A stretch of 64,000 nt of DNA, taken from positions 1 through 64,000 of the forward strand of contig QPGO01000220.1 in assembly GCA_008632985.1 (NCBI GenBank). Direction: 5' to 3'. The notes beneath the pieces were generated by a model that saw only the letters and a program-made list of their open reading frames with translations, did not search any database and had not been told where the DNA came from. The number at the start of each line of letters is the position of its first letter. Positions within the stretch are counted from its first letter, which is position 1. Of this stretch, positions 858-38,405 are shown piece after piece. Both the position numbers and the translations under genes were made by a program. Origin of the DNA: Psammoneis japonica. Lineage: Eukaryota.

Positions 858-1571
858 AGCAACCACTGGGACTTTTTCAACAGATGAAGTGTCGATTCCC
901 ATGTTTTCGGGTGTGGAGAATTCGACTGTGGGGTCAATTCATCGATTGTCCGGCATCTGGTGCGATTGGCGTTAAGACTTCAATCTCTGGCAATTGGAAA
1001 GCTTTCTTTCAAATGGGTGCTGCCAAAGCCTGTGATGGGAGAAGGTTCTCACGCATTGCAGAATTGCGTCAGATTTTTCACGGTGAGATCCACTGGTTCT
1101 TCCCACACTCATTTGTCCGAGGAACTTTTCAAAGGATTTCAAACCTCTTGAGAGAAGATTGAGTGGGTGATTCTTTTGGCTTGGATGCATTGCTGTGGCT
1201 GTCACTTGATTGGAGTCTAAAGAATGTGCCCGGGCATGCTGCAAAGAATGCACTTCAAGTGTGGAGGAGGAGACAGTTTGCAAAATTGCCTCTTTTTCTG
1301 TTGGCGATCATTCACACATCCATTGCTTGACAAGTTTACTGCGGAGCTCGCACGTGGAATTCTACGGGCCCAATGTCACAAAAAGTCCCACCTGGGACTG
1401 GAACCCATCGGCCGCTGGTCCTGTTGTTGACTCCATTCACAGCGCCACATTTTCAATGTGATTGGCACTCAGCTGGAATGTGTTGGTGTTGAAGAGTGCA
1501 CCAACATTCTTCATGGGGCAATTGCTGTGCCCCATCTCATTTCTTCATTGCTGGACATCAAGTTGCGTCTC

Positions 1572-1627
1572 TTGGTTGGTTGGTTGGTTGGTCAGTGGGT
1601 CGGCGGGTCGGTGGTCAGTGGTCGGCG
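1572..1627. repeat. (GGTT)n-like degenerate microsatellite running into an assembly gap
   Basis: ttggttggttggttggttggtcagtgggtcgg...; reverse complement of the 2289-2464 array. Confidence 0.8.
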
Positions 1628-2288
1628 NNNNNNNNNNNNNNNNNNNNNNNNNNNNNNNNNNNNNNNNNNNNNNNNNNNNNNNNNNNNNNNNNNNNNNNNN
1701 NNNNNNNNNNNNNNNNNNNNNNNNNNNNNNNNNNNNNNNNNNNNNNNNNNNNNNNNNNNNNNNNNNNNNNNNNNNNNNNNNNNNNNNNNNNNNNNNNNNN
1801 NNNNNNNNNNNNNNNNNNNNNNNNNNNNNNNNNNNNNNNNNNNNNNNNNNNNNNNNNNNNNNNNNNNNNNNNNNNNNNNNNNNNNNNNNNNNNNNNNNNN
1901 NNNNNNNNNNNNNNNCAGAATTCTGCGTGCGAGCTCTGCAGTGCAAGAATTTCATTGGTGGACATTTTCATCTTCAAGTGCATTTGTGCCTGTCCACACT
2001 CAAAGTTTTTGGCAATCTGCCTGCCCTGCGCCATTCTCAATGCATTTGCAAATGACGCAGAAGAAAAAAATGTCAAAAACTGTTGAATGGATCACCCAGC
2101 AATTGCACTGCAAAATGATGCACAATTCCACCAAAGTCACGTAGAAACACACGTGCACAACACACAGCACGATCCAAAAAAATGTTGATGTCATGGTTCA
2201 GCAGTGCAAGGTCCCGCCCAGAGCTGGAGCGCATCCCCTGACCCTTTTTTGAGCCTCAGAAGTGCTCAAAGTGGCTAAACCTTCATCG

Positions 2289-2464
2289 CCAACCAACCAA
2301 CCAACGGACCAACCGACCAACCGACCAACCGACCAACCGACCAACCAACCAACCAACCAACCAACCGACCAACCGACCAACCGACCAACCGACCAACCGA
2401 CCAACTGACCAACCAACCAGCCGACCAGCCGACCAACCAACCAACGGACCAGCCAACCCGCCGA
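2289..2464. repeat. Tetranucleotide microsatellite (ACCA/ACCG/ACTG/GCCG units)
   Basis: ccaaccaaccaaccgaccaaccgacc... read directly. Confidence 0.95.
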
Positions 2465-2853
2465 CTGAATGACTGGCTTGCTGGCTGAATGTGAGACGTT
2501 GCATTTTGTTGCCAGCTGCAACATTCTCTCAAGGCAAGCCCAAATTGACCGTGTGTTCTGCCTCTTTGCTCCGTTCCCTCAAGGCCTTCTTGAGCTTCAG
2601 CTTGCTTGCCAACAACAGCTTTCACAGCACTGGGACGCAAAACTCAGCTGCGACAGTCAATTTGTCACCAGCTGGCCCCGCAATGCAGTGAACAGTGGCA
2701 AGTCTCATTGATGACTTGGACACAACAGTTCGAGTCTTGTCAACCATGACTGTTTTGAATTTGAATTAGTCGTGCTTTTTATGTTCAAACGAAAATGAAA
2801 AAAAAACTGACATTTTCCCTCACTTTACATTTCAGATTGGTGCCATCGCGACC

Positions 2854-4192
2854 ATGTCGAGTGCAGGAGTGTCTCTTTCCCGTGGTGGATGCAATGATGC
2901 GGTGAAGACATCAAAGATTTTTGAGGTTGGCGCACTTGTGAAAAATGCTGGAACACTTCTCGAAACGCACGTGAATGTGCTAGAATCTGTGGAGTTGGGG
3001 TCTTCAAAGGGAGACAAGGAGAAGCTGTCAAAAATGCTCAAAGATTTCTTTGTTGTTTCACAGAAACTCAAAGAAGGTTCAACCTCACTGACACGAGCAG
3101 CAGCAAATGTGACATCGTTCAAGCGCGGAAACAATGCCAGTGGTTAACTTGAAAAAGAGAGGAAGAGAAAGACATGCGTGAGGAGGAGAGAAATGATTGA
3201 TCGTTGCAGAAAAAGAATCGTGCATTTCGTGAGATGCAAAACTTTGGCTCCAACTTGGTGATGGCAGGAGCGAAGCACAATGGCGACGAAAACAAAGAAT
3301 TGAAAACTGGTGCTGCCAGGACTGTCATTGGACGGGATGGGGGGATCAAGGCACCATGTCCCCTCAATGGATTTCAACACACACCGGCTGAGGCAACAGA
3401 AGCCATTGTTCAGGTGAAGAAATCTGGACACCGGAATTTGGGAGCTTTTGAAGCTCAAATGATCGAGAAGGGCTGTGTGCCTGTCAAGAAGTCCGCGTTG
3501 AATGAGAAAGTCAAAAAGTGCAACAACGGGATGAGAGTGCCCCCTGCATTGGAAAGAATCTGGCGTGGAGCAAGCTTTCTTTGCCTGGCACAAAACGCAC
3601 ATTTGCGCGCCGTTCACAGATGCCATGCGTGCAAAGGTTGGCTACAATGGCGGGCCCATTCATGACAGCAACAAAGCCGTGGCGATGAAGGATGGTGGAG
3701 CACCACAACTCCAAGGGCAGGGCAGGGAAGAGTTGATGGTGCCGCTTGTGAAACAGCGATTCCATCACATGAAGCAGCTGCGCATTCCCAATGAAGACTG
3801 TCACTTTCACTTTGTGCTGCGGGCATTCGAGGAGAACCTCCCAGCACTTTGCGCATTGGTTGTGCCAGCTGGACATGTCAAGACTTGTGCAAAATCTGAT
3901 TCATGCCTTCTGGCATCTCCACAGCAGGGTGCATTTGAGTTGACTCACGAGGGCTGCAATCCAAGTGCCATGGGCTGCTGCTTGTTTTGGGATGCTGTCA
4001 ATGTCGAAGGCTGGACACGCAGTGGGAAAGTGTTCGGGGCTGGCCAAAGAGAATCGGGCTTTCAAAATTCGACATCAAGAACATCTCAAGGCATCAAAGT
4101 GCAAACAGTTGTCGGAGCTGAAGTCGATGTTGCACCTGCTCCATCCACGTGAGTCCGAGGGGCATGGTTTGGACAATCTCCGACATGGGCAC
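2854..4192 (+). pseudogene. Degenerate TpA-depleted coding remnant (possibly a DNA-transposon relic) interrupted by the copia element and probably continuing at 10764-11030
   Basis: Overlapping broken ORFs (2854-3147, 3204-3665, 3565-4152) with protein-like composition but almost no Tyr; family not recognised with certainty. Confidence 0.35.
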
Positions 4193-4468
4193 TGACAGGA
4201 TTTGAACAGGATTTGGGTGCGCGCGAAATGTCGTGCGATGTTTGGTTTGCCGCGCACAGTTTTGTGTGCTTTAGTTCCGCGCGTTCGCACGCGATGTGGT
4301 TTGCTTTCGAGCCACAAGGCTCACAAGAATGACAACAGTGGCCCGATTGCACCAACTTGCACGTCTTTCGGCTCCTGTGACGGTCTCTGAGCGGAGACTC
4401 ATCTGCTGTTTAGACAGCAGCAAGGAGTTGTTGTTTGAATTCTTGCCATTTGCCTTCGATTTCTGTCA
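4193..4468 (+). repeat. 5' LTR
   Basis: TG...CA termini with 6-bp inverted repeat; followed by GATTGGCAGTC (possible PBS). Confidence 0.95.
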
Positions 4469-5408
4469 GATTGGCAGTCTTGCTCATTGTCAACCCATTG
4501 AGCAACCGCCATCGTCGTTGTTGATTTACCGACAACGCCGTTTCAATTCTGCGTGGACCTCCGTGTGTGTTCTACACACATCGGCAAGTCTGCGCGCATT
4601 CAACACCAGGCATCGGCAGGAATTTAACGTCACCGTCAAGTCTCCTTGCCGCTGGATGTCTGGATTGATCACACTGCCTTTTGTCGCTGAAGACATGCAT
4701 TCAACGGTCATGTCCAAGTCTGTCCTTGATCCTCATCCCTTGATGCACCCATTCAACGGTTAACGGTCAAGAACCCTGCACATTCAAGGATCTTCGTCGC
4801 TGAAGACATGCATGTGTGCATGTCTTCACGGCCAAGAACTTGCACTCACTCTTTGGACTGCGGCTTTGCTGCCACTCTACAAGCACACCGAGTCCATTGC
4901 ACCTGATCTACCCCGGACTGCTGGTGCTCTACAGTTCTGCTGGGTCCACGAGGACCACTGTGAGAGCAAGTGGCCGTGATTGCAGCCTACGTTGGGGCGA
5001 GGGTGTTTTTTCCCGCGTTTGTTCGTTCGTCCACAGTGCCTGACGCCTGCGTCAACTGGCCAGCCTGATCGGGAAATCCAACCGACATAAAACAAGAACG
5101 GTTTGGGGGTCTTGTCCACCTCCAGTCAGCTCACCTGCAGGGGTTTACAACCCGCTGCTCCGCTCGCAAGCAACCCAAAGCGCCGCTGGCTGCGGGTTCG
5201 GACGTGCCGGCACAACTCTACGGACCGGACAGGAAGTTTGGCACTTGACAACGAATGGGATAGCACAGCCTGGCGACTTCTGATTTTAAGGCAGTTCAAG
5301 ATTTCAAGTCAAGTCCATTTCAAGTCAAGTCTGTTCTCACCCAAGTTTCAAGTCTGCCTTCGCGCGTCCCAACAAGAATCGCTTGTCCTGACACCACTTT
5401 TGTCTGCC

Positions 5409-8400
5409 ATGGTTCTCACTCGTCAGCAACAAACCGATGGTTTCGAGCACGTTGTTGGAACCGTGCTTGCCCAAGGTGCTGGGAGCCCTCTTCGTTTGGC
5501 TTTGACCCACGACGGCACGGACTCGTGTCAAGAGCTGTTCACGTTCATGCCGTCCCAAATCGACTCGCTTGAGCACGACAACGGCACCAATGTGATCCCT
5601 TTGCCCCGCGGTTGTAAGAACATGTCAGCAGCTCCAACCAGTCTGCACATTGTCAAAGCACACGAAGGTCTTGACGTTGCCAATGACTCCTCGTTGTTCA
5701 CGCATGAGGAGTTCCTTGCCTGCCGCCTCAGCCCCGACTGCATGTCTTCTGCATCCGTTGGCAGCTCGCCCCTCGCACCTCCGCATGTCACCAACCCGAC
5801 CAAGGCACGCGACCCGGTGCGAGACTTCAAGCGAGGCATCAAGCGTGACCCCACCGCTTTCACGGCTCTCAAATCTGACAAGCAGTGGCACACTTGGCAC
5901 ACCTCACTTGTGGCACAAGCCCGTGCCCAAGACGTCGAGTGCACTCTAGACTCGTCGTACAAACCAACCAGCCCCAAAGACAAACTGCTCTTTGCTGAAC
6001 AGCAAAAGCACATGTTCGCCGTCTTCAAACGCATCCTTCTCACCGACAAGGGCAAGGCTCTCATTCGCGAAAATGTGGGGTCTTCTGACGCCCAGACCGT
6101 CTGCCGCGCCTTGTCCGAGCATGCGCTCGCCTCCACCCGCGCATCTGTCAAGTCCTCCACCTTGCTCACGTGCCTCACCACCGCACGTCTTGGTGATGGC
6201 ACTTGGAAAGGTCCGACCCACAGGTTCATCCTTCATTGGCAAGATCAGTCGCGCAAGTGCGAGGCACTCATCCCAGCCAGTGACCACTTCTCTGAAGGAC
6301 AGAAGCGCGTCATGCTCGAGAATGCCGCACATCCTGTCGAGGAACTCCGTGCTGTCAAGAACCAAGCTGATCAGCATCGCATGCAGAGTGGCAAGAGCCT
6401 CACACATGATCAACATTGTGGCTTGCTCCTCTCCGCGGCGGCTCAATGCGACAGTGCGTTTCAACCCAAGATGACACCTCGAGCTCCCCGACGTGCCATG
6501 TGCGCACACGACGTCCACTCCAAGGAACCGTCTGATGATGTGTTCTGTGACATCGACAGCGACATTGACGTCCTTCAGGCCAATGCTGCCTGCCCCTGCG
6601 GTCCCAGCCTCACCGGTGACCAATGGAAGCATCTCCCTCCCAACCACCAACGGATTTGGGATTCGTTGCCCCATTCCTCCAAGGCGATCATCCTTGAGCA
6701 TTCTCATCTGCCTCCCCGTAATCCGCGAGCCAGCAACTGCCATGAGTCCGTTACGGCCAACCTTCACGACCAACACCTTGGGAGTGACAGTGATGTCAAC
6801 TTGTCCAACACGACTCCTGCCGACTCTGGTGACCCCGCTCCAAATGTGGGTGCCACTTCAGACAATCCCATCCTGGCGCACCTCACCAAGTGCAAGCCAC
6901 TGCCACCCGGTGATCTGCAACGCCTGTTGTCGCCCAACCAAGCCCCCAATGCCAGTCGACCGGGGCCATCCGCCGCTCCCTCTACCTCGCCCGCTCCTGC
7001 CGATGACATGGAACTTGACGGCCGCACTTGCCACCGTGTCAACAACCACAATGTCATTTGCTCTGCCTCCGCTCATCGCTCCACATGCACTGGTGCTCCA
7101 GTTGATCGTGGGGCCAACGGCGGCATTGCTGGCGATGACGTTCGCATCATTGCACGCACCTCTCGCCAAGTCGACGTTCAGGGCATTGACGACCATCAAT
7201 TGGTGGACATCCCCATTGTCACCACTGGTGCCGTCATTGAGACACAGCGTGGTCCCGTCATTGCCATCCTCCATCAGCACGCACACACGGGAAAGGGCAA
7301 GACCATTCATTCCTGCGGCCAGCTCGAATGGCACAAACAGGATGTCAATGATCGCTCTGTCAAGGTGCCCAACGGCTTGCAATGCATTGCCACCCCTGAT
7401 GGCTGTGTCATCCCAATTGACGTCAAGGGCGGCCTGCCTTGTGTTGCCATGCGACCTTGCACTGATGCCGAATGGGACACCCTGCCCCATGACATCCTTG
7501 CTGGTGATGACACATGGGATCCTTCCGTCCTCGATCACTCTGTCACTGACGACGACCAGTGGTGCGACGTGATCTCTGACCCACAGGATGATCCCACTGC
7601 CAACCCATTTGACGAACACGGCAACTGCCATCATCGTGTCGTTGTCAACAAGACCATCATGTCCGCCTCCTTGTCTGCCGATCACGCGTCCGCCCTCGAT
7701 GACCATCTCATTCCGAACGACGACGTGTTCTACGAGTGTCATCTGCACGCGATTGACCCCAAGGACGACGACGTTCCGCCCCTGGAGCGCACTGTGCAGC
7801 CCAAGGACCCCCCCTTCAAGTCTCTTCGGCCTTGCTTTGGCTTCCAACCTGCCGACATGGTTTGTCGTACTTTCGACTGCACCATGCAGTGCGCCCGCAT
7901 GCCCGCCGGTGCACACCTTAGGAAGGCCTGCAAATCGCCCAACCCTGCCCTCAATGTGCACCGCCGCAACGAGCCCATCGCCACTGTGTGGACGCTTTGT
8001 TGGCATTGCTGAGCACGTCGGCCACCAAATGACCTTCAAGATTCTCTCTGACGAGACTCAGAAGATCCTCTGCCGGTCCAACGTACGATCCGCTGCCACC
8101 GATCCTGCCGTTCGAAACCTGCGTCTTGATCCTCCTGATGGGGAGCCACCTGAACCCATCATCAAATCTCGCCATGACGACAACCCCGTCGATTCACCCG
8201 ATGGGGAGATCAGGACACCCAAGATGCCAGTTTTCGATCCGCAAGACATCATCGGACGCACCTTCCTCATGCAGCCACAAGAGGACGGACAGCGCCACAG
8301 AGCTCACATCGTCAAGGCCGTCGAAGACCACGAATGGAAAGTGAACGGCAATCCCGAGCTCACTGAGTTCGTCTGCTCTGTCAACAACGACGAATGCGAG

Positions 8401-10430
8401 GAAGTCCTGGCCTGCAACGACATCATGAATCACATTGAGCAAGAAGACGAAGACACTGCTGTTTGGAAATTGCGGCGCATTGTGTCACACGAAGGACCTC
8501 TGAAGCCTCATGACCCAACCTGGAAAGGCTCAAGCTGCAACATTGTGCTTGAACGGGAAAGTGGGGAGATCACGTCCGAGCCTCTTGCCATCATCGCCAA
8601 GGACGACCCTGTCACCTGCACCATCTATGCATGAGAGAACAGACTTCTCGACACTGATGGCTGGAAGTGGTTCCGCACCATCGCGAGGCGCCAGAAGAAG
8701 CCATTCCGCATGGCCAACCAAGCCAAGCTTTGCTCCTTCCACACTGCACCTCGCTGCAAGTACGATGCGAAGTTCCCCGGAACTGCAAACCTGCCATGTC
8801 ACTAGACGAACGCAACGGCAACCGCAAATGGGGAGACGCAACTAATCTCGAGATGGACCAACTCAAGGAATACGAAGTCTTCCATGACTGCGGGCCCTCC
8901 GAGTCTTCCACTCCTCCTGCGGGACACAAGAAGATCCGAGTGCACCCAGTGTACGACGTGAAACACGACGGTCGCCACAAGGCACGACTCGCAGCCGATG
9001 GGCACCTCACGGACGTACCCATCGACAGTGTCTGCTCCGGAGCAGTCTCCCTCCGTGGCCTTCGGCTGATGATTTTCCTGGCCAAACTCAACGAGTTGGA
9101 GACATGGGCCACCGACATTGGCAATGCCTGCCTTGAAGCCACCACCAAGGAGAAGCTCTACATTGCAGCCGGACCTGAATTTGGCAAACTCAAAGGCCAC
9201 ATCCTTGTCATCCACAAGGCCCTGCATGGACTGCGCAGCTCCGGCCTCCGCTGGCACGAGCGCTTTGCCAACTGCCTGCGAGCTGAAGGCTTCTTCCCCT
9301 GCCGCACCGAACCCGACATTTGGATGTGCAGGAACAGCGACCACTGCGAACACATTGCCATTTATGTGGATGACCTCGCCATTGCCATGAAGGACCCTCA
9401 ATCTTTCGTCGACACTCTCATGGAAAAGCACAAGTTCAAGCTCAAGGGTGCGGGACCGATTGAGTTCCATCTGGGCTGCGACTTTTCCCGGGATCCCGAC
9501 GGCACCTTGTGCCTGTCTCCGCGCAAGTGCATCGAGCGCATGGTCAACAGCTGCACCCGACTGTTTGGGGAGAAACCTGCCACCAACGCCCTGTCACCTC
9601 TGGAGAAGGGTGACCACCCCGAACTGGACACTTCCGAACTGCTGGGGCCCGATGGCATTCACAAGTTCCAGTCTCTTGTTGGTTCACTCCAATGGGCAGT
9701 GTCCCTTGGTTGAATTGACATCACCACGGCCGTCATGTCACTCTCTAGCTTCCGAGCTGCGCCCCGTCAAGGCCACTTGGATCGTGCCAAACGTGTCTGT
9801 GGGCACCTCTCCAAGATGCGACACGGCGCTCTCCGCGTTCGCACGGAAGAGCCTGACTGTTCGGATCTCCCTGCTCCAGCCCATGAATGGATGCATTCCT
9901 TGTACGGCGAAGCAGAAGAGATGATCCCAAAGGATGCTCCACTGCCCCTTGGCAAGTTTGTCACTGCCACCCACTGCGTCGATGCAAACTTGTGCCATTG
10001 CATGCTCGCCGGACGCTCTGTCATGGGAATGCTCCACTTCCTCAACAAATTCCCGGCTGATTGGTTCTCTGAGAAGCAAGCCACCATGGAGACTGCGACC
10101 TGCGGGTCTGAATTTGTTGCCGCAAGGACTTGTGTCGAGCAGATTGTCGACCTGCGCATCACCCTGCGCTGCCTTGGCGTCCCGATCCGTGATGTCAGCC
10201 ACATGTTCAGTGACAACAAGTCGGTTGTAGACAGTGCCACCATCCCACACTCCAAGTTACACAAGCGACACACCGCACTGTCGTTCCACCGTGTGCGTGA
10301 GGCAATTGCCTCTGGTTGCCTTGAGTTCCACTTCATCGAAGGCTCCCGCAACCCTGCTGACATTCTCAGCAAGCACTGGGGTTGCTCCCAAGTCTGGGAC
10401 CTTCTCCGCCCCCTCATGTTCTGGAACTTC
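5409..10430 (+). pseudogene. Copia gag-pol pseudogene (gag, aspartic protease, partial integrase, RT, RNase H)
   Basis: DFKRGIKRDP (gag), VDRGANGG (protease), GRFVGIAEHVGH (IN C-term), HKARLAADGH/DIGNA/YVDDL (RT), GSEFVAAR/DNKSV/NPADILSK (RNase H); frameshifts near 7990 and 8760; TGA stops at 8632-8634 and 9711-9713. Confidence 0.93.
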
Positions 10431-10482
10431 ATTCCATCCAAAGTCGAATCTGTTTCTGTGGCTCCTCAAGCAAACTGGGGAG

Positions 10483-10758
10483 TGACAGGATTTGAGCAGG
10501 ATTTGGGTGCGCGCGAAATGTCGCGTGCTGTTTGGTTTGCCGCGCACAGTTTTGTGTGCTTTGGCTCCGTGTGTTCGCACGCGATGCAGTTTGCTTTCGA
10601 GCCACAAGGCTCACAAGAACAACAACAGCCGCCCGATTGCACTGACTTGCACGTCTTTTGGCTCCTGCAACGGTCTCTGAGCGGAGACTCATCTGCCATT
10701 TAGACAGCAGCAAGGAGCCATTGTTTGAATTCTTGCCATTTGCCTTCGATTTCTGTCA
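10483..10758 (+). repeat. 3' LTR
   Basis: Ungapped match to 5' LTR (about 24 substitutions by manual alignment); preceded by short purine tract GGGGAG. Confidence 0.95.
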
Positions 10759-11342
10759 GGCACTTCCAAAACTTGGAAGCATTTGTGGGCATGGGCTTTT
10801 CAGAATCAAATGGAACAGAGAATGTTGTCAATGCTCAAGATGGTGTTTTCATTTGGAGCAAACGCACATTGAAGAAGCTGCAAGAGGCCAAGATGAGCGG
10901 TGCCGAGATGAAGTCGAAACAATTGCATCTAGTCTCACACATGCTTGAGTGCATTTACGATCTGCTCATTTCCCCATCCAAGAATGTTTCAGTTAGTTTC
11001 GGTTTCGAAATGTTCTTGGGAACCTTTAACTGATGCTATAGCAGTGGTTGCATCCACATCGTAGCCGGCTAATGATCATTGCCGGAATTTGCAACACCAC
11101 GCGTGATGCGCTGTGTGCATTGTGCATGCCGTTTCACACAAAAAACATACAGTACTACCGTACGAGCTCTGCACTGAGGGTAATGCAATTATGTTTTTTA
11201 AAGCTTTTGGAGCTCNAAGCCGGTCGACCGGCTTTTTTCCTACACCTGTAGATACGAAGTAGGAGAGTAGGGCCCAGCCTACCTACCGGTATTTATTAGT
11301 CTACCGGCGTGAGTTCCGAGACAGAAATAAGCTGTACCTACC

Positions 11343-23389: not shown

Positions 23390-23563
23390 NNNNNNNNNNN
23401 NNNNNNNNNNNNNNNNNNNNNNNNNNNNNNNNNNNNNNNNNNNNNNNNNNNNNNNNNNNNNNNNNNNNNNNNNNNNNNNNNNNNNNNNNNNNNNNNNNNN
23501 NNNNNNNNNNNNNNNNNNNNNNNNNNNNNNNNNNNNNNNNNNNNNNNNNNNNNNNNNNNNNNN

Positions 23564-26392: not shown

Positions 26393-27724
26393 CATCTTGG
26401 GACGCATAACACTGGTTAGTCACGAGGGAAATTGTATAGAGCAATATTAATCATGGACCGTCACTACTATAGCTAGTTGGAATACACAGAAGAATGCTTG
26501 GAATCGCAGAACAATCCCTCCTTTAGCGAATTGAATTGAGCGAGTTCTGAGAACTAGCGATTTGATTGCTCATTTGGAAGAAATGAATGATGCTACTGAA
26601 ATATCTAGTTTAGTGCCCATCAAGATATTATGCAACACGGGAGGGTTTAGCAAATGTCCGATAGCGGGTCCAATGTTTCGAGTGAACCCTGAAGTAAGAC
26701 AACGTTTGTTTGAAAGCAAGTGCAGCTTTGCAATGCTGAAAATTAAAATGATGTCAACTACAGCTAATTTGCCTTACTGAGAAAACAGACTCCCCCCCCT
26801 CTCTCTCTCCTCTTGGTGTCCTCGTTTTCTATAAGAGGTTGATCCATGCACCCGCATCAGAAGCAAGCAAAGGTGAATTTTCGTCGGGCATGTCTTCGTC
26901 CGAGGTCTGAATCATGTGACACGAAAGAAACTGCCCAACTTTCCTTGACACCACTTTTCCATGCTCGGTCTCGGGTTCCAAAAAGGACGTTGAGGCAATC
27001 CTTGCAAGATGTCACAGACCAGAATTTCTTTAGTCAGCAAGTCTTGAGAATGCCATCATCGCAGCACTGTAGGATTGAATCCCGCTCCGCACTTGATCAT
27101 TGTCAACCTGGCAACAAGCACTCCAAACAACAAAGCAGAAAGCCCAAAGCAAAGAGACAGGCCCAGAGGGAGCATTGGGTGAATCCCAGTTGATCACAGG
27201 AGAGGTCAGCACAGCAGAAGAAGACACCAGCAGTTTGCTCAGTGGACATCACAAGCCAAGTGCAAAGCCATGCATGGCTGCTGGGTTGTCATTGGTGCTG
27301 ACAATCTCAATGTGCACTTGTCAATGATGTGCTTTTTGCAGTTTTGCAGAGAGAGAAAAGCAAGCTTGGTGAGTCCTTCCAATGTTGATCACAGAGTGAA
27401 ACTGCATGAGTGCTCACTTGCTGTTTCACTGCCAAGGGCAGAGAAAGACAAGTGTGCTCCACTGGGCTGCTGACAGCAGAGTGCAAAAAATCGCCTCCAC
27501 ACCCACAACAAAGTCCAGCTCTTTTGATTTTTAGCACCACCAATGTGACTTCCAGCTGGCCTGATTCAGGCGCAACATCCCTGTTGATCCTGCATCATTT
27601 TGGCCCCTCTTTGTTGTTCTTCTAAGTGCCAGCACAGCCTCTGCCAAACTCAGAACAGTGCTCCATGGTGACGAGTCAGGAGATTTGCATCTGTGCAGCC
27701 AACCACCAAAAGAAATGGCACAAT

Positions 27725-28095
27725 CATCATGATGAAACAGCAAGAGTCCAGTGGTGCAAACCCAGCCAGGGCCTGCACATCCAGGCAGGCTGCTTGTGCT
27801 GATCTGAGCAAAAAACACTCTCTCTGTGACCACCAGAGAGAGCAACTGTGTCAGAGGAGCTGGCAGCAGGTGATGGCAGGGCCTGTGACCAGCATGTGGC
27901 TGCTGTGTTCATGACAAAACAGCAGGCATCTGGCAGCCCAAACCCAGCCATGACCTGTGCACCCAGGTGGGCTGCTTCTGCTGATCTGAGTGAAAGGCCC
28001 TTTTTGCAACCAGAGAGTGGCTGTGGCAGAGTGGCCAGCAGCAGCAGCTGATGGCAGGGCCTGCAACCAGCAGCATGTGGGGCTGCTGTGCTCTT
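27725..28095. repeat. Degenerate ~185-bp tandem duplication
   Basis: AAACCCAGCCA...GCTGATCTGAG and GATGGCAGGGCCTG..ACCAGC..ATGTGG each occur twice. Confidence 0.7.
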
Positions 28096-29807
28096 TGGTG
28101 GAGAGGCCTGACACAAGAGTCTGGGTGTCAGTACCAGCCTGACGCTGACAACATGTGCAATCACTGCCTGCTCCCCACACCCCAGGCCATGTCCCCACAC
28201 CACACATCCCTTCAATCATGGGCTCAGAGCAAACCCAGGCAGGACACCATTGGTTTGGCCAGGAGATTGAAGATGCTCTGTGGGTGGATGTGAGCATTCA
28301 TTTGAATGTTGAGTGCTGATGCTCAAACACAGTGTGAAAAGACATGTGTTGCGTGCACCAGCCATGCACATGCAGAGCCTCTGTGACAACAGAAATTGCA
28401 ATTTTTGGGATTTTTTGCCAACGCCAAAATCAAACATCACAATGCCATGCTGAGTGCTGGTGAATGCATGTGGCTGATGATGAATGTCCTAACTGAGCAT
28501 CATTTTTTGAAGAGGCTGATGCCCCCTGCAGATGATGAGAAACTCCCAACCAGTGCCAAAAAGTCACAGAATGAGAGTGATTGCTCCAAGGATGAGGTGT
28601 GGAAAACACAGCTGCTGAGTGCTCAAAAAGGCTGGCACAAGAATGACACAACAGCTGCTGATGCCATGGAGTCAACATGACAAACAAACAAAAACAATGC
28701 TGGGTGGGGGGTGAGCCATGTGTGTGTGTGTTTTGGCTGCAAGGCTCTGTGTTGCTCTTGAACAAAAGAGCGACATTGCACTTTGTTGCAGAGGTGGTTG
28801 GAGTGTGGTGCTTTTGGAACCCTAACCTGCTGCAATGATTTTTGACTGAGAGTGCTGCAGCAGCAACTCTGCTGTCAGTTGAACACAAGAGAGACAGTGG
28901 CATTGCTGACAGTGGGGTCAGACAGCATGGCTGCATGGACTGATCTTGCGCATGCGCAGCAGGCTGAGTGGTTGCCAGATTGTGAAGGCACACGTGCATG
29001 TGTGAGGTGCAAGCAGGAGGCCAAAATGTGCAGAGTTGTTGATGCTGAGTGAGTCAGCAGATGGTGGATTTTTTCCTGTGCTTGATCTGTGTGCTCTTCA
29101 CGTGGAACACGACAATGTCTGGGTGTGTTGTGGGGGGTTTGCACATGACACACAACACACATGTTGTGCTCTTAACATGCACATGATCCAACTCAAAAAA
29201 GTGCCAGTGCAGAACACTCCAAAACAAGACTGGAGTCTGGTAAAAAAATCTGTTTAAAGTGGTCAGACGAGCAGGGTTGTTTTGAAGATTTCTCAAGTTG
29301 CCCTCATTTTTGTTGGGTGTGTCTCAAAACATCTGCCAGCCACTGGCTCAGCCAAAATGTGCTGCCCCTCTCCTTCACACACAAACAGCAGCCACAGCAC
29401 AATGATGCCCAATGACCAGCACCACAGCAGCATGGCAAGCAAAGCAAGTGGTGCTCACCAATTTCCACGAGTGCAGATGTTTTGAGATGAGATCAAAGTG
29501 ATTGTGGATGACACATGCTTTGTTCCTGGGCCAAGTTGCATTTTTTTCTCATCACTTGTCATCATGTCATTTTACAATGTTTTGAAACACTGTTTTGTGT
29601 GAGATTCATGTGAGCACTTGCTTGGAAAAAGCAAGGTCTCAAGTGCATCTCACTTCTTTGGCCACACCACCAATGGCTTTTCTTGCAGGGCGTTGCCAGT
29701 TGGGCAGTCACATTAAACCTGGCTGGGCACAACCAACTGGCCCTGTCCAGGTTTGCTCATGTGCTCTTGTTGTTGCTGCTTGTTGTGTTGCTTGCACCAG
29801 GTGACAA

Positions 29808-30219
29808 GGTTGTGAGGAAAAGCTGAAAAGAAAAAAGAAGGCTTCAAAGGCTCCGCTGGTGGCTGGAGATCTGTTTGCACACCCGAGTCGTGCATGAGTT
29901 TGCACTCTGTTGACACCGGTGTTCTGTGGGGCACTGTGTGTCTGACATCAGTGATCAAAGCATGCATGTGGTGCTGCTGTGTTGTCACAATGAGATCATT
30001 TTGATTCAAGATGACGCTTCTGTTGCCTCTGTTTTTGCTTCTCTCGGAGGCGGTCAGGGATTGGTGCAATGCATGGGATGGGACCAAACGCACCCTTGAC
30101 AACACATTTGAAGTCCACCTGAATGATGGCCAAACTGTGATGCAAGGGTTGGGCAGCATCACACTGGGCAACGGAATCTGCTGCAAGATGTCTGCAAGCC
30201 CCCACCTTTGCATCAGCCA
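29808..30219 (+). pseudogene. Hypermutated partial copy of the upstream region and 5' CDS of the 37326-38405 gene
   Basis: Aligns to about 37125-37552 (TTGTGAGGAAAAGCTGAAAAG; GGGCAGCATCACACTGGGCAACGGAATCTG). Confidence 0.92.
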
Positions 30220-30829
30220 ATGATGTCAATGCAGTCACATCATTTGCACCTGCACATGATCTCCAGAGCTGCAGCCCTCATTCTTTCTCTGCCTTGCTGG
30301 GTTTGGGTGGATGCAAACATGAGAAAGACAAAGTGTTGGTTGTGAAAGCTTTTTTGCTTCTTTGGCTGTCAACACATCTGAGCATTTCCTCTTTGCATGA
30401 CATTGACCTGACGAGAGTGTGAGTTGTTGTGTGGGAGCGGCGATGTGGCAATGTGGGTGTCACCAACACCCCACAGCCTTCAAGAACAGAGCAGAAAACT
30501 TGTCTTTGTCATCTTCTTTGTGGATGATGGGTGAATGTTTTGAGGCAGATCGTGCTCTGTTCTCACTTTGTACACTGGCCAGTGCCGTCGTGTTCTCTCC
30601 TCTGTGTCTTCAGAGTGCCAACATGCTTTCTGCAGTGAGGGAATTGTTTGTGGTTGTTGATGCACCTGCCCCCCAAGTGCCAAAGAAAGCCATGTCCTGA
30701 GCTTTTGCTTTTTGCAGATTGTGGTGGTGCCCTTCTCGTGACCAGGATTCTGTCCATGCTTTGCCACTGCTGTGGCAGATGTGTGTGATGCATGGTGTGC
30801 TTTCTTCAACACCCTCCAGGTCTCCAACA

Positions 30830-31830
30830 GGACTGATCAGAGCATGTTGCTCTGCTCTTGCAGGACTTGTGCCTTCTTCATCTCCATCAGTGGCTCCATC
30901 ATCTGTTTCAGGCACTCTCCTGAGTGAAGCTCCAAGCAAAGCCCCCACTGACAAACCTTCTCAAGTCCCCAGTCCACATCTCCAACTGTCAAATCCATTG
31001 TCATGCTGTCTTTGTCTCCATCCATGGTTCCCAGTGACATGCCGACACCATCATCTGTTGGACCCTCCAGTTCTCCATCTGACAAGCCAAGTCCAGCCAA
31101 TTGAGCACAGGACTTGTGCCTTCATTGGCTCTCTGAGCACCCACATCATCTCCTTCTGAAGGTGCGCCAGGCAAGCTCCAAGCAAAACACCCAGTGATGA
31201 AACTTCTGGTGCACCATCTGCTGTTCCATGTCAATCACCAACCAGCAAACCTGGTGTTCTTGCACTGCTTTCATCTCCATCCTTGGTTCCCAGTGATGTG
31301 ACGACACCATCATCATCTGCTGCACCCTCTGGTTCTTCATCTGATGAGCCCAGCCAATCAAATGCAGAACTTGTGCCTTTGTTGGCTCCCTCAGCAGCTG
31401 CACCATCTTTTTCTGGAGGTGTGCCAAGTGAAGCTCTGGGTGAACACCCAGTGACAAAACTTCTGGCACTCCATCTGCTGCTCCACGCCAATCTCCAATC
31501 GTCAAATCTGGTGTTGCACCACCTTCATCTCCACCATTGGTTCCCAGTGATGTGCCAACACCATTGTCATCTGCGGCACCCTCCAGCTCTCCATCTGATG
31601 AGCCCAGCCAATCAAATGCAGGACTTGTGCCTTTGTTGGCTCCCTCAGCAGCTGCGCTGTCTGTTTCTGGAGGTGCGCCAAGTGCTGAAGCTCTCCAGGT
31701 GTTAGACCCAGTGACAAAACTTCTGGCACTCCATCTGCTGCTCCACACTAATCTCTAACTGGCAAATCTGGTGTTGCACCACCTCCATCTCCATCCTTGT
31801 TTCCCAGCGACATGCCGACAGCAACATCAG
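30830..31830 (+). repeat. Four ~250-bp tandem units encoding degenerate Pro/Ser-rich stalk (PSDVPTP..SAAPSSSPSDEPSQSN)
   Basis: GCAGGACTTGTGCCTT-like anchor near 30860, 31107, 31365, 31618; resembles a pseudogenised cell-surface protein. Confidence 0.8.
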
Positions 31831-34200
31831 ACAGGCTGGAAATTTCCATCTGGCGGGAAATTGATTGACACCCTGTGTGCAACCAAACAACCAAACAGTT
31901 GTTAGCTGAGGGTTCTGGTCAACTCCTGGTGACCAAGGGGTGGACTTTAAGAGCATTCATTGCAGTTGGCTTGGTTCATCTGGTGTTGTTTTGGTCCGAC
32001 AACACCCAAGGCCATCAGCAGACTGACTTGATTTTTCCATCTGGACAATGGATGGACACCCCAAGTGCAAGAACCAACTGGCTGTGCAGTTGTCAGCCAA
32101 GGGTTCTGGCCTTCTTGCTGTGTGCCTGGGCTGGACTTTAAGAGCATTTGTTGTCATTGGCAAGGTTCATCTGGTGTTGCTTGGGGGGTCAAAATTGCCC
32201 AATGATGGCAGCCAGCAGGAGACAGCTGACATGATTTTTCTGTTGGGACAATGGACAGATTCATCAAGCACGACAAACAAACCAAACAATTGTCAGCAGA
32301 GGGCTCCATTCAACTCATTGTGATCCAGGGGCAGACTTTGAGAGCATTTGTTGTGGTTGTCTTGGCCCATCTGGAGTTTTTTTGGCACAACATTGCCCCA
32401 GGCTGGAAGCAGAGATGTGCTTGAATTTTCCACCTTGACAATGGATGGACACCCCAAGTGCAACAAAGAAACCAAACAGTTGTCAGCTGAGGGTTCCAGC
32501 CAATTCATTGTGCTCCTGGTGCCAACTTTAAGAGCATTCATTGCAGTTGCCTTGGGTCATCTGGTGTCATTTTGGCCCAGCATTGCCAAAGGCAATCAGC
32601 AGTCAGACTTGATTTTTCCATCTGGGCAATGGATGGATGCCCCAAGTGCACCAAACTGGCCATGCAGTTGTCAGCCAAGGGTTCCAGCTTTCTCACTCTG
32701 CCCCTGGGGTGGACTTTAAGAGCATTTGTTGTGGTCAGCAAGGCTCCTGTCATCTGGCATTGTTTTGGATCAAGAGGTCACACAAGGGCAGCATCAAACA
32801 GACTCAATCTTTCTGTCTGGACAATGCACCAGGTTGTCAGCAGAGGACTCCAGCCAACTCACTGTGACCTGCAGGTGGACTTTAGGAGTGGCTGGTGGTT
32901 GGCTTGTTTCATCTTGTGTTGTTTTGGCCCAACTCTGCCCCAGTCTGGCAGCCGAGACAGGCTTGCTTTTTCCATCTGAACAACAGACACCCCAAGTGCA
33001 ACAAAGAAGTCAAACAGTTGTCAGCTGAGAGTTCTGACCAACTTGCTGCCTGTGACCCAGGGATGGATGAGAGAGCTTTCATTGCGGCTGCCTTGGCTCA
33101 TCCCTCTGGAGTTACTTTGCCCCAACATTGCCCAAAAACAGCAGCAGACAGACTTGATTTTTTTGTCTGAACAATGGACAGACAACCCAAGTGCTGCAAA
33201 CTGACCATGCAGCTGTCAGCCAAGGACTCCAGCCAATTTGCCATGGCCCAGCAGTGGACTTCAATGGCATTGTTGTGGCTGGCTTGTCTTGTCTTGTGTT
33301 GTTTTAGCCCAACATCACACCAGTCTGGCAGCAGACAGAGACTTGCATTTTCCACATGGGCCATGGACAGACACCCCAAGTGCAACAAAGAAACCAATCA
33401 GTTGTCAGCTGAGGGCCAGCTCACTGTGACCCAGGGGTGGGCTTTAAGAGCACTCATCATGGTCATCTTGGTTTGGCCTTTGGTGCTGTTTTGGCCATGT
33501 GACAGACTTTCAAAGCATTCATTGTGGTTGCCTCAGTGTTCATCTGGTGTTGTTTTGGCCCAACATCACCCAAGAGCAGCAGCAGACAGACTTGAATTTT
33601 TCATCTGGACAATGGATGGACACCCCAAGTGCTGCAAACTGACCATGCAGCTGTCAGCCAAGGACTCCAGCCAATTTGCAATGACCCAGGGGTGGGCTTC
33701 AATGGCGTTGTTGTGACTGGCTTGGCTCGTCTTGCACTGTTTTAGTCCAACATCACACCAGTCTGGCAGCAGACAGAAACTTGCATTTTCCACATGGACC
33801 ATGGATGACACCCCAAATGCAACAAGAAACCAAGCAGTTGTCAGCTGAGGGTTCTGCCCAGCTCACTGTGACCATGGTCATCTTGGTTTGGCCTGTGCTG
33901 GTGCTGTTTTGGCCATGTGACAGGCATTCACTGTGATTGCCTTGGTGTTCATCTGGTGTGTTTTGGCCCAACATCACCCAAGAGCAGCAGCAGACAGATT
34001 TGAATTTTCATCTGGACAATGGATGGACACCCCAAGTGCTGCAAACTGACCATGCAGCTGTCAGCCAAGGACTCCAGCCAATTTGCCATGACCCAACAGG
34101 GGTGGACTTTAACAGCCAATGAACAAACCCCAAGCAGTTGTCAGCTGAGGGTTCTGGCCAGCTCACTGTGACACAGAGGTGGCCACCTTGGTTTGTCATT
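31830..34200. repeat. ~190-bp tandem satellite-like array, about 12 diverged units, A/B alternation
   Basis: GACACCCCAAGTG-like anchor near 31868, 32055, 32448, 32636, 32986, 33181, 33370, 33619, 33807, 34026, followed by CAG(T/C)TGTCAGC. Confidence 0.88.
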
Positions 34201-37200
34201 CTATGGTGTTGCATCAGCCATGTGACACCCCAGCCCAGCAGCAGATGCAACAGAGTCCCTCTCACCAATGACTGGACACCTGAAGTGGCAACAAAGGTTG
34301 TTGAAATGCCGCAGCTGTCTTGCTTTGTTTCCAACAAAGAAGCACACATGGCTTTTGAAAAAATGGCAGAACTTGAACACACTTGCAACATTCTGCAGTG
34401 GCAGATGGGACATGTTGCATCAACAAATGTTGAACTCCTTTGAGGGAGAAAATCACAATCACAGGTTGGCCCTCAGAAAGGGCTCAGAAGACAGCTGTGC
34501 CTTGAGAGTCATCATCTTTGCACTCATGCTCTGAGGCATCTTGCTGCAACTGGGATTCTTTTGCTTGGTTCTTTGGTCACAAAATGACCCCAAGGTGAAC
34601 ATTGCTTGATTTCTTCTTTCTGGCAATTTCCACCAACAACTTGCCAATTGGAACATGTGATGTCACCCCTCCACAAAGATCAATGCTCCCACCAGCTCCA
34701 AATGTTTCACAGCTTCTTTGTGCAGCTTTTTGACTCTTTCTGTGTCAAACACATGCAAGTTGGCATCAGCACCTGTGTCAGCCAGGTTCATTGACTGGAA
34801 AACAAGCAAAGTGCATTCCCCTCCAGAAGCCAGAAAATCAGCATCAACTTTGTCTTTGTTTTTTGGTGGAGAGAATGTTTTCTAGATGGAGTCTTGTCTG
34901 TTGCCTGTCCTCTGTGATCTGATTTGCTGAACAGCTGTTGGCACTGCAACTGTGGTGGTGAAGATGGGGCAATGTCCACAACCTTCCCAGTTTCCTCCAA
35001 AGCCACCAGAGTTGCACCTTTTGGTTGGGCATCACATGTCAGAGTCAGAGTGAAGAAGACCTGCTGACTGTAATTTCTGGCTTTTGTTGCTCCTGCTTGT
35101 GCTCTGCTCTTGCCTTGTTTCTTTCCAGCATGCAAGTTTTTGATCCTTGTCTTCAACTTCTCAATCTCATCAAACCCACCTGACTTCTCTCTGCCTTTCT
35201 TGCCAAGCAAGATCTCTCTTCTCTGCAGCAACAACAGGACAATGCTGACAATGGGATTGCACCATCACATTGCAATGCATGGCACAGTGCACCCCAATGC
35301 CAATGACATTGCTGCCAGCAGGAACACTTGAGCCAAAGAACAAAGAAGTGGCAGAGTCCTTCATGGCAGGGGCAGTGAATGGATGTCAGGGTGATGTTGA
35401 TGAAAGGAACACCAAAAAAGTTAAGATGACTGTCAACTCAACCAAAAGAAGCAGACATCAAGGTGAGAACATCATGAAAGTGCTGGCTTGATTTTGTCAT
35501 GTGTCCTTTTCCAAGAAGTGTCCTCAACAGCTCTGCTTTTTGCATTTTCAGCAGAGCCAAGGAGACAGTGCAGTCAAACCCCAATAAAAACATTTGGCGA
35601 GTCATCCTCAGAACAGTTTTTCTCTTTTGTTTTTCTGGTGACTCAAAAAAAGAATGCATTTGACCACCATTCTTGCAGCCAGAATGTCAAAGAATCCTTT
35701 GCCTGCAAGTCTTGTCCCGCAAACCCAACAGGATGAGAAAACCATGGATGGGGCTCAATGATCAAATGTTTGCTGCATTCAGAATCAGAAGAAACTGTGT
35801 GGTGGAGTGCCACATGGAAAGCCAGTTCCACCAACATGCACTGACTTGGATCATTTTGTTGCGCTCCACTTGACTCTCTGTTGATGCACGCGGCATTGCA
35901 CCACAGGCCCCAGATGAGAACAATGCTGTGCCTGAAGCACAGTCCAGGAATGCTGGTGGAGGAGGGCACCAGTTCATTCCTGGAGCTCTGGCAATGGGTT
36001 GCTCCCCAAAAGATTGGAGGTGCCCTCAAACCCAGAAACATGTGTGAGACAGCGGCTGGCATGCAGGAATGAAACCCAGCAATGTCCAAGAAGGAAGACC
36101 CACAAACTCACCTGGAAAAAGGTGAAAACTCCAACAATGCAACTGGGAAACCCTGTTTCCAGCAATTCCTCCAGAAAACGTGCCATGGTGCATCCAAAGT
36201 CATGCATGAAGAAGTTCGTGCAGAAAATCCAGCAACAGTTGTGTGCAGTGTCCCAAAACTGCTCAACAAAGTTGAAGATGCTGCACCCACAGATCAGATC
36301 TGGATCTTTTTGGTGTGTGTTTGCATGTGTTTGAGGATGCCTTGCATGTTGTGCAGTGTCCATGAAGATCTGGATCCAACCCAGATGTTGTTTTGAAAGT
36401 CCAAACAAACAACATGCATGCAGCACAGCAATTGACCATGTGTTTTGGCAACACCAGGAGAGATCTGGGCAGTGCACAAGCAGGAGGAGCACCACAGACA
36501 ATGCTGCAGGTTTCACAATGGTCGTTTGCAGTGTTGTGGTTTTGACAATTCATTGCAGACTCTGCAACATCATCATCACAGACTCCCAACACTGTGAGAG
36601 TGCCCATGACGCTGTGTTGTGGGGAAGCCATGGAGTCTGGTGCACCACATCCAGGCCTTTCTGAGACACTTGCTTGTGCAGCGCACTGCTCTCATGGAGA
36701 GGAGCACAGCTGTGATCTTGGGTCAACTTCAAAGCTGCCTTTTTTCATTGTGGCTTGCTTCTTGTGCACCCAGCCTTGGCTCTGAGGGTCTGCCAATTTG
36801 CTGGAATGACCCAATTCCCCCCCTTGACCCGCTTTGCCGGTTTTCAAAAAGGCCACTCATTGCTGCACACCCAGAGTGAAAAGTGCTGCATGCTGCTCTC
36901 TTCATTTACACTGGCACCTTGCAAACTGCTGGTCCGCTTCCCAGTGTGACGCCGCCAGAAAAAAAAAACTCCAAGACCTGGCTGGCGCTGTTGAGCAATC
37001 TTTCCAAGTGTTGGAGGCTTGATGGCAGATGCAGGAACATCAAGAAGTCAAAGAGGAAAACCTCGGTCTAACCCGAGGATGGCATTGCTGACAATGGGGT
37101 CAGTGACAACAGATTCAATGAGAGATTGTGAGGAAAAGCTGAAAAGAAGGCAAGAATGAAGAAGGCCATTCAAAATGACGGCAGGAAACCGAACGCGAAT

Positions 37201-37325
37201 CGCGCATGAGGTCACCGTGCACCGTCGTGTTTGAGTCACCTTGATGACACCAATGTTCTGCGATCTGCGATCTGCGATCTGCGAAATTGTGAGATGTTGT
37301 GATCGTACTGAGCATCACCATCACG

Positions 37326-38405
37326 ATGAGATTATTTGGATTCAGAACGACGCTTCTGTCGCCTCTGTTTCTGCTTCGCTCGGACGCGGTCGGGGATTGG
37401 TACGATGCATGGGGCGGGACCATACGGACCCTCGATAATGCATTTGAAGTCGACCCGAACGACAGCCGAACTATGATGCGAGGGTCGGGCAGCATCACAC
37501 TGGGCAACGGAATCTGCAAGATGTCCGCAAGCCCCCGCCTTTACATCAGCCACTCATCGGATGTGGCAGGGTGGGAGAATACCGACTTCCAGGTGTACGG
37601 AATGTTCGTCCAAGCTGGCAACCTGAAGAGCTACTCCGGCCTTACCCTGGTGACCCGGTCCAATCACGATCTGTACAGCACCGACGGCTGCGAGGCAATG
37701 GGATACTACGCAAGAATCTACTGGCAGACGGGCGAGCTGTCGTTCCAGAAGGAGTATTACCATGGGTCGGGTGGCACAGTTTACAGCCCATCGAAGAGAG
37801 TCCCGTACTTTGTCAACGGCGTCCCAATGAACACCTGGATCGGGATGAGGTTCACAGCCACAACGACCGGCTCGAACAACGACGAGGTACAGCTGAAACT
37901 TTACCTTGATGAGGTTGGCGACGGGAGCTGGGTCCTAAGACACTCGTACACCGACAAATCTGGCGAGTGGTTGAGCACAAGCTCGTCCACCGTCCCAGCA
38001 GAATGCCCACAGAGCGATGGCGACACGGTCCTGGGCCCGCGCAACGTCTGCTTTCTCCGATCCGACGGGTCGTCCGACACGGAGGTGCACTGGAAAGACG
38101 CTCTCGTCCTCAACGAGTTGGATCCATTGCCGACATCGTCCCCAGCTCCGTCGACTTCTCCGATTCCTATCGTTTGTGAAGGCATCGTGCCCAAATCGGC
38201 ATGCAACGACGCTTTCGGTGGTTCTGTGTGCAAATGGAGTGGGCACCCAAATAAAGGATCGTGTGGGCCTGTTGATGGCGGAGGTGCAGGGCCCGGACCG
38301 CCCTCGGGTTGTGGTGGAAACAATGCCCCGTGCTCCACCCCCTCGCAAAACACCGCTGATTGCTGCAGTGGCTGGTGCAAAGCAAATGGGAAGTGCAGTA
38401 AATAA
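37326..38405 (+). CDS. Putative secreted protein: beta-sandwich (lectin/polysaccharide-binding-like) domain, P/S linker, Cys-rich C-terminus
   Basis: Hydrophobic N-terminus; aromatic-rich beta strands (NTWIGMRF, VQLKLYLD, FLRSD); C-terminal C..CCSGWC....KC; start could be 37299. Confidence 0.7.
   Translation: MRLFGFRTTLLSPLFLLRSDAVGDWYDAWGGTIRTLDNAFEVDPNDSRTMMRGSGSITLGNGICKMSASPRLYISHSSDVAGWENTDFQVYGMFVQAGNLKSYSGLTLVTRSNHDLYSTDGCEAMGYYARIYWQTGELSFQKEYYHGSGGTVYSPSKRVPYFVNGVPMNTWIGMRFTATTTGSNNDEVQLKLYLDEVGDGSWVLRHSYTDKSGEWLSTSSSTVPAECPQSDGDTVLGPRNVCFLRSDGSSDTEVHWKDALVLNELDPLPTSSPAPSTSPIPIVCEGIVPKSACNDAFGGSVCKWSGHPNKGSCGPVDGGGAGPGPPSGCGGNNAPCSTPSQNTADCCSGWCKANGKCSK

Follow-up and report, generated by a model that had tools for sequence, protein, structure and literature searches.

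A degraded copia element in a mosaic of genes and repeat islands

We analysed a 64,000-nucleotide stretch of contig QPGO01000220.1 (the window), with a focus on a long terminal repeat (LTR) retrotransposon at 4193-10758 whose two LTRs differ from each other by reciprocal TG/CA dinucleotides. The target-site duplication GGCAC on both sides, together with the TG...CA ends, indicates that both LTRs come from one insertion. The element matches the Pfam domain RVT_2 (copia-type reverse transcriptase, E=5.1e-22) in the open reading frame (ORF) 8658-9713. RVT_2 was the only domain detected: Pfam recognised neither rve nor gag in the element or in the relatives P0001, P0002 and P0005. A protein database search returned 444 relatives at E<=1e-30, the best of them 63% identical and many of them full-length polyproteins (1171-1913 residues), and tblastn showed the element to be colinear with full-length relatives over 5409-10451, in three frame segments. 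These three segments, along with an in-frame TGA at 9711-9713 where relatives have Arg, show that the element is a dead copy. We assign it to the Ty1/copia type of LTR retrotransposons, as a degraded member of a very abundant family, its gene order being taken from colinearity with relatives and not from domains.

No other copy of the LTR or of the element was found within the 64-kb window. A metagenome scan with the reverse transcriptase protein recovered one locus of 1316 nt, without LTRs, and viral-contig scans with the same protein and with the LTR-start pattern gave no match. Twenty ORFs of at least 100 aa overlap the element (window 4000-11000), and long stop-free ORFs occur on both strands and in several frames; since loss of TA removes the stops TAA and TAG, a long ORF does not indicate coding in the islands described below. 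Coordinates of all features are given in Table 1.

Table 1. Features of the window (o/e, observed-to-expected ratio of a dinucleotide; a dot marks a feature without strand).
Feature	Position	Strand	Remarks
5' target-site duplication GGCAC	4188..4192	+	from flank comparison
5' LTR, 276 bp, TG...CA ends	4193..4468	+	TG at five swap sites, CA at one
Stretch with all six TG/CA reciprocal sites	4297..4430	.	4297, 4330, 4353, 4378, 4407, 4429; includes 4339-40 and 4350-51
N-terminal polyprotein region	5409..7982	+	colinear with P0001 residues 1-872, 36% identity; gag, protease, integrase expected by position
Middle polyprotein segment, different reading frame	7990..8778	+	frame changes near 7985 and 8775
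Reverse transcriptase and C-terminal region	8769..10451	+	RVT_2 at ~8907-9536; 64% identical to P0001
3' LTR, 276 bp	10483..10758	+	CA at five swap sites, TG at one
3' target-site duplication GGCAC	10759..10763	+	from flank comparison
TA-free flank beyond 3' LTR, 171 bp	10759..10929	.	0 TA vs 11.5 expected from the next 400 bp, P=1e-5
Island A, upstream of element	1000..4192	.	TA o/e 0.06, CG 0.60, TG 1.64, CA 1.52
Island B, with tandem arrays	26833..37305	.	TA o/e 0.05, CG 0.15, TG 1.84, CA 1.82
Island C, continues past window end	62590..64000	.	TA o/e 0.01, CG 0.16, TG 1.74, CA 2.04
235-bp duplicate, inside island B	29985..30219	+	TG/CA at all 19 sites
Partner duplicate, outside island	37321..37552	+	keeps CG (14) and TA (5) at those sites
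CRAL-TRIO/EF-hand gene	11331-12503
ADH_N-containing gene	19407-21911	minus
Class IV aminotransferase	23112-25193	minus
AAA ATPase	38871-41396	minus
Bifunctional dehydroquinase/shikimate dehydrogenase	42180-44936
NUDIX	45630-46487	minus
TCP-1 epsilon	49104-50786
Alpha/beta hydrolase	53983-54852

Reciprocal TG/CA differences between the LTRs

Aligned without gaps (4193-4468 against 10483-10758, offset 6290), the LTRs are 91% identical and differ at 24 positions, 22 by transitions and two by transversions (4238 and 4340). At six places one LTR reads TG and the other CA (4297-98, 4330-31, 4353-54, 4378-79, 4407-08 and 4429-30), with 4353-54 in reversed orientation, and at 4272-73 the 5' LTR has TA and the 3' LTR TG. 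The 5' LTR keeps TA at this last site and within TTTAGAC. The initial annotation had reported about 24 LTR differences, about 22 of them transitions, with six TG/CA swaps and one TA/TG pair, and re-alignment reproduced all of these coordinates.

The six-swap pattern is far beyond chance. The 5' LTR offers 50 TG/CA sites, and in 20,000 simulations that scattered 22 transitions over it at random the number of swaps never exceeded four. The mirror control, GT against AC between the two LTRs, had 0 occurrences. Reading the orientation bias (TG in the 5' LTR and CA in the 3' LTR at five of six sites) as strand-coordinated bursts was considered and dropped, the bias being not significant and internal sites alternating. 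The five single CpG differences between the LTRs (4234-4369) are all plus-strand C/T and none G/A (5:0), too few to interpret.

Each LTR and the internal region contain both TG and CA outcomes, so editing of a plus-strand RNA cannot explain them. With the matching GGCAC, this agrees with the earlier proposal that mutation struck both strands of integrated DNA: the changes were made at the DNA level and after integration.

The ancestral dinucleotide

Sixteen CpGs are intact in both LTRs and five are hit in one. Under a homogeneous model in which the swap sites had a CG ancestor, the expected numbers of kept, single-hit and swapped sites are 11.9/13.3/1.9 against 16/5/6 observed (G=13.9), and the intact CpGs are interleaved with the swap sites in similar contexts, leaving no room for regional or contextual differences to save the model. 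With a TA ancestor, the counts of one TA/TA, one TA/TG and six swaps are fitted by a per-copy hit probability of 0.886 (G=3.4).

The coding part was compared with an outgroup of pol relatives, of which 138 of 150 were used, the 12 with less than 3% Tyr being dropped as possibly mutated themselves. Conserved columns were those with at least eight relatives and at least 60% consensus (397 columns, 324 of them matched by the element). Conserved Tyr is kept in only 4 of 21 columns and is replaced by Cys in nine, His in four, Phe in three and Ile in one, while conserved Arg is kept in 22 of 24 columns (20 with CGN codons), its losses being one stop and one Lys. Counted by codon, only one of 21 conserved CGN Arg codons was lost, a CGA that is now TGA. 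Since TAY>TGY (Y, pyrimidine) yields Cys and TAY>CAY yields His, the Tyr replacements match the products of TA>TG and TA>CA. The loss of Tyr stands out against all other columns (p=2e-10), as does that of TAY against CGN (p=1.7e-4, Fisher). Among the 73 changed conserved columns, 19 are single-step TA>TG/CA changes (12 TG, 7 CA) and 11 fit CpG decay; the 19 include Ile>Val, Lys>Glu, Thr>Ala, Val>Ala and Leu>Pro, which fit TA>TG or TA>CA with the dinucleotide straddling two codons. Tyr makes up 0.2-1.1% of the residues in the element frames vs a median of 4.3% in relatives, and in a separate MAFFT alignment of the reverse transcriptase region 2 of 10 Tyr are kept and one Arg>Cys is seen.

Five copia relatives in the database (P0014, P0021, P0038, P0042 and P0135) have Tyr>Cys/His at conserved Tyr columns too, with P0014 keeping none of 10 conserved Tyr (7 Cys, 3 His). 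Hypermutated copies therefore exist in other public assemblies.

Variation among other copies of the family was drawn from contigs of a public run (X1), 13,086 pieces of which were aligned to the element; 41 of 490 difference positions were listed. Family copies vary by transitions at 430 places vs transversions at 53. At the swap site 4297/98, the G of position 4298 is replaced by A in 94% of the X1 depth and throughout the X2-X4 contigs, no row for 4297 being among the listed positions, and one contig end reads ...GATGTAGT across the site, a direct TA. Position 4340 is G>A in 60% of X1 depth; 4339-40, which read TGG in one LTR and CCG in the other, are likely a seventh TA-derived site with an added transversion. 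At 4350 the change is C>T in 63% of X1 depth, and 4350-51, CA in both LTRs, is a "hidden" double hit in the same direction, as the TA model predicts. When the listed positions within the element were classed (38 of the 41), the window has TG/CA where others have TA at 21 and where others have CG at nine; one has TA in the window and TG in others, two have CG in the window and TG/CA in others, and five fit none of these classes.

The single-copy flank contigs of X1 differ from the window by two letters and one gap in 181 nt (4000-4180) and by seven letters in 242 nt (10709-10950). X1 may represent a different haplotype or strain; alternatively, the flanks may be polymorphic.

The inference that the ancestor was TA and not CG had originally been drawn from a near-absence of TA beside many retained CG. 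It is borne out on each point: a single TA survives in both copies of the LTR pair beside the 16 CpGs, the CG model is rejected, Tyr codons are lost while CGN Arg is kept, and a check of the family for TA at the swap sites finds it at 4297/98, the sole swap site among the listed positions. The direction of change is from TA to TG or CA.

TA-poor islands across the window

The window as a whole is a mosaic of genic DNA and sharply bounded repeat islands, and the swaps are not specific to the LTRs. Genic DNA has a TA o/e of 0.55 (CG 1.05, TG 1.17, CA 1.16) and the copia element one of 0.12 (CG 0.84, TG 1.56, CA 1.40); the other islands are listed in Table 1. The four pyrimidine-purine (YR) dinucleotides sum to a constant 22-25% across regions, as expected from transitions within YR steps. 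GC content is 56% in the element vs 48% in genic DNA, and composition changes sharply at 10929, 26833, 37305 and 62590. The 171-bp TA-free flank beyond the 3' LTR either records a process spreading past the LTR or is the remnant of an older island that hosted the insertion.

Repeats other than the LTRs carry the same changes. Double differences of the TG/CA type number 58, vs four GT/AC and no CG/TA, over ten other or overlapping repeat pairs of the window: one dispersed pair, and tandem arrays located at 31-34 kb, 27.7 kb, 0.4 kb and 47 kb. The segmental duplicate with one copy inside island B and its partner outside is strictly directional: all 19 differences are CG or TA outside and TG/CA inside (p=4e-6), so both CG and TA decay to TG/CA within islands. 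As the element lacks most TA and retains most CG, TA decays faster than CG. Per copy, roughly 76-89% of TA, 5-12% of CpG and 1% of other sites have been converted. On this historical ratio, taken from hit fractions, the rate of TA loss would exceed that of CpG by a factor of roughly 10-40 and the background by about 100-fold.

Searches of island ORFs against Pfam gave no match for any of 20 ORFs in island B, nor for any of 36 in the non-element islands. The tandem arrays at 30859-34227 (units of ~190 and ~255 bp, copies 62-88% alike) have essentially no CG or TA, many TG/CA swaps and no Pfam match. A 145-bp tandem array at 46969-47598 lies in normal CG- and TA-rich DNA and has columns with TA, TG and CA in different copies, for example CCGTAACG / CCGTGACG / CCGCAACG. 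Two small intergenic patches, 22096-23066 (TA o/e 0.10) and 53137-53557 (0.04), are TA-poor and dissimilar to the copia LTR; they are possibly solo LTRs or transposon fragments. Within island A, 2257-2500 is a microsatellite-like array of 8 bp, (CCAACCGA/CCAACCAA)n.

Sequence context of TA loss

In 21.8 kb of islands 85 TAs are left, and the base 3' of their A, counted on both strands, is A in 66 cases, G in 50, C in 46 and T in 8 (chi-square p=3e-9). None of the survivors has the context ATAT and hardly any has ATAC, while CTAA, TTAA and CTAG persist; both TAs remaining in the LTRs are TTAG, a context of low susceptibility. Independently of these survivors, where a TA ancestor was inferred (38 sites) the A that changed is followed by a pyrimidine in 32 cases, compared with 19 for the A of the opposite strand, and the mutated A outranks its opposite-strand counterpart 23 to 7 (p=0.005). 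The process thus tentatively appears to prefer A before a pyrimidine (TAT, TAC), as judged from a small data set in which Tyr codons fix one of the neighbours. An ADAT-like ban on T as the 3' neighbour was also considered and is rejected, TAT being the most depleted context.

Neighbouring genes

The host genes between 11331 and 62237 are intron-poor, uninterrupted ORFs (Table 1). TCP-1 epsilon is 83-85% identical to the proteins of the diatoms Trieres and Attheya and 75-79% identical to those of Leptocylindrus, Seminavis and Nitzschia, which makes the host look diatom-like. The alga Bigelowiella natans was weighed as the source organism and rejected, since the genes have few introns and TCP-1 has its closest matches in diatoms.

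Proposed mechanism and alternatives

We consider it highly probable that, after integration, a repeat-directed hypermutation of DNA turned TpA into TpG or CpA in this element. The element would have integrated with identical LTRs, and the process would then have acted on its DNA, changing A to G on either strand. Each TA would have been resolved independently in each LTR, sites hit on opposite strands now reading TG in one and CA in the other, and TG and CA are about equally frequent in the islands. The process would target bounded repeat islands and spare the neighbouring genes, and in older islands a near-complete decay of CpG to TG/CA would have been added. The agent may be an adenine deaminase or a thymine-modifying enzyme aimed at silenced chromatin, presumably with a role in defence.

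Among the alternatives, the one to which we give most room, although it too seems very unlikely, is that the LTR differences were imported by ectopic gene conversion or by chimeric assembly of different copies. The abundance of the family and the fact that the sequence is a scaffold with N runs leave some space for it, but the 5-bp target duplications match and no N lies inside the element. Alleles brought in from elsewhere would still need independent resolution of TA in integrated copies, and the duplicate, the tandem arrays and the TA-free flank are independent of the LTR pair. There is slightly less to be said for swap sites that were once CpG, with methylated cytosines deaminated on opposite strands in the two LTRs. 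Such decay does occur here: the LTR pair has five CG/TG single differences, CG o/e falls to ~0.15 in islands B and C, the 14 CG differences of the duplicate are all directional, and diatom DNA methylation is mostly at CpG (PMC5124317), in keeping with the slower decay of CpG seen in islands. Yet this route predicts only ~0.2-1.9 opposite-strand double hits where six are seen, it leaves retained CpGs interleaved with the swaps with no difference in context, and it accounts neither for conserved CGN Arg codons staying intact while Tyr was lost nor for the TA of the family at 4297/98.

A two-step history, in which the ancestor was TG (or CA) and one LTR changed twice through a short-lived CG or TA intermediate, is just as improbable. 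CG and TA are both unstable in the islands, which would allow quick resolution, and the GT/AC mirror control shows the swap to be specific to the YR step. Its first step, however, would be slow, at the background rate, so that with ~1.5% divergence and 50 TG/CA sites less than one swap would be expected; moreover, the family majority has TA at 4297/98, 4339/40 and 4350/51, and the Tyr>Cys/His changes show that the coding part started out with TA. Editing before integration, by an ADAR-like A-to-I activity on RNA or by deamination of cDNA during reverse transcription, can practically be set aside. Reverse transcription makes LTRs identical at insertion, whereas those of this element differ and were hit on both strands. 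Tandem repeats and a segmental duplicate that were never RNA show the same changes, and 171 bp of flank outside the element are TA-free. What speaks for pre-integration editing is an excess of TG over CA in the internal region (12 against 7) and the preference of ADAR for U before the edited A (10.64898/2026.01.13.699255, Discussion).

Several points weigh against hypermutation of TpA as the origin of the swaps, or limit its reach. Direct family TA was obtained at one of the six swap sites (4297/98) and at two extra sites, among the 41 of 490 positions listed, and the dinucleotide phase of these positions is assumed from single letters, except at one contig end. No X1 contig spans the element, flank contigs ending at or just inside the LTR edges. 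The counts behind the LTR model are small, even the TA fit reaching only G=3.4, and the outgroup homologs are at most 63% identical to the element. CpG decay is present in the element as well (nine family sites, 11 codon changes, the CGA>TGA stop and one Arg>Cys), so that some TG/CA may be CG-derived. The diatom affinity comes from one protein, TCP-1 epsilon. Finally, the closest precedent, in Bigelowiella natans, is a single preprint in which the mechanism is a proposal (10.64898/2026.01.13.699255).

Consequences for dating and annotation

LTR divergence is 8.7% in total and falls to 1.45% when sites traceable to TA or CG are excluded, so LTR dating is inflated about five- to six-fold. It had been claimed from the start that the age of this element would be overestimated, and the drop once TA- and CG-derived sites are left out is in line with that claim. 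TA loss also makes transposon proteins hard to annotate. The process affects an abundant copia family, tandem repeats and a segmental duplicate, and it can be followed in silico, without mutation-accumulation lines, through TG/CA swaps in LTRs, Tyr>Cys/His in transposon proteins and duplicates with one copy inside and one outside an island.

Comparison with known systems

Clustered deaminase-type transitions that disable retroelements are also the work of ADAR and APOBEC3, and ADAR likewise prefers a 5' U/T. These enzymes act before integration and on one strand, whereas the changes described here are post-integration, affect both strands and extend to DNA that was never RNA. Repeat-induced point mutation (RIP) of fungi, the closest of the classical analogues, resembles the process in being a DNA-level, transition-only and dinucleotide-specific attack on repeats that ruins coding sequence and leaves islands of odd composition beside normal genes. 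Its chemistry runs the other way: RIP turns CpA/TpG into TpA (C>T) and AT rises, whereas here TpA becomes CpA/TpG (A>G) and GC rises. Nor does anything in the window point to duplication as the trigger. Fungal RIP was therefore rejected as the process at work, since TpA is removed and not created (island TA o/e 0.01-0.12, with CA and TG enriched). Deamination of 5-methylcytosine at CpG likewise converts a palindromic YR step into TG or CA on either strand, and it does so in the same islands, but the target of the LTR swaps is TA and not CG.

The nearest parallel is B. natans, a chlorarachniophyte (rhizarian), whereas the genome studied here is diatom-like (stramenopile). The preprint (Mettrop et al. 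2026, bioRxiv 10.64898/2026.01.13.699255) describes mutation-accumulation lines with a rate of ~6e-7 mutations per site and generation in two integrated viral regions, where 230 of 231 mutations are A>G or T>C, all on TpA. It also reports an enrichment of reverse transcriptase and DDE domains among TpA-depleted coding sequences, and its authors propose an ADAT2-like adenine deaminase as the agent. In both systems it is DNA that is changed, from TpA to TpG or CpA and on either strand, in bounded foreign or repetitive regions; both show TpA depletion with gain of CpA and TpG, in clusters of 1-kb windows in B. natans, with reverse transcriptase and DDE genes depleted. In full-text literature, other papers being judged by their listing, we found no report of TpA hypermutation besides this preprint, and none for diatoms.

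The two systems differ in several respects. Our evidence is historical (an LTR pair and outgroups), whereas a rate was measured in B. natans; the targets are an LTR retrotransposon and tandem repeats here and giant-virus and virophage inserts there. Depletion is far deeper here, with a TA o/e of 0.01-0.12 against a Rho of 0.45 in the B. natans viral region. CpG decay accompanies it here, weakly in the element and near-completely in islands B and C, whereas the B. natans regions have almost no other class of mutation; this decay may be a separate, slower process. The TAY preference suggested here is not reported for B. natans.

So deep a footprint in a diatom-like genome suggests that the process is not peculiar to one species. 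Diatoms, like B. natans, might possess an enzymatic defence that edits adenine or modifies thymine at TpA, preferably TAY, on both strands of silenced repeat islands, a kind of "reverse RIP" running about 100-fold above background and ahead of CpG decay; we regard this as a serious possibility, somewhat short of an even chance. If the two lineages have the machinery in common, the SAR supergroup would possess an ancient, widespread immunity that works on DNA through TpA editing and has been overlooked in published diatom genomes. Such editing would have erased Tyr codons and all TAA and TAG stops from transposons, and every LTR-based age estimate in diatoms would be biased. Tractable diatom models exist in which the enzyme could be sought.

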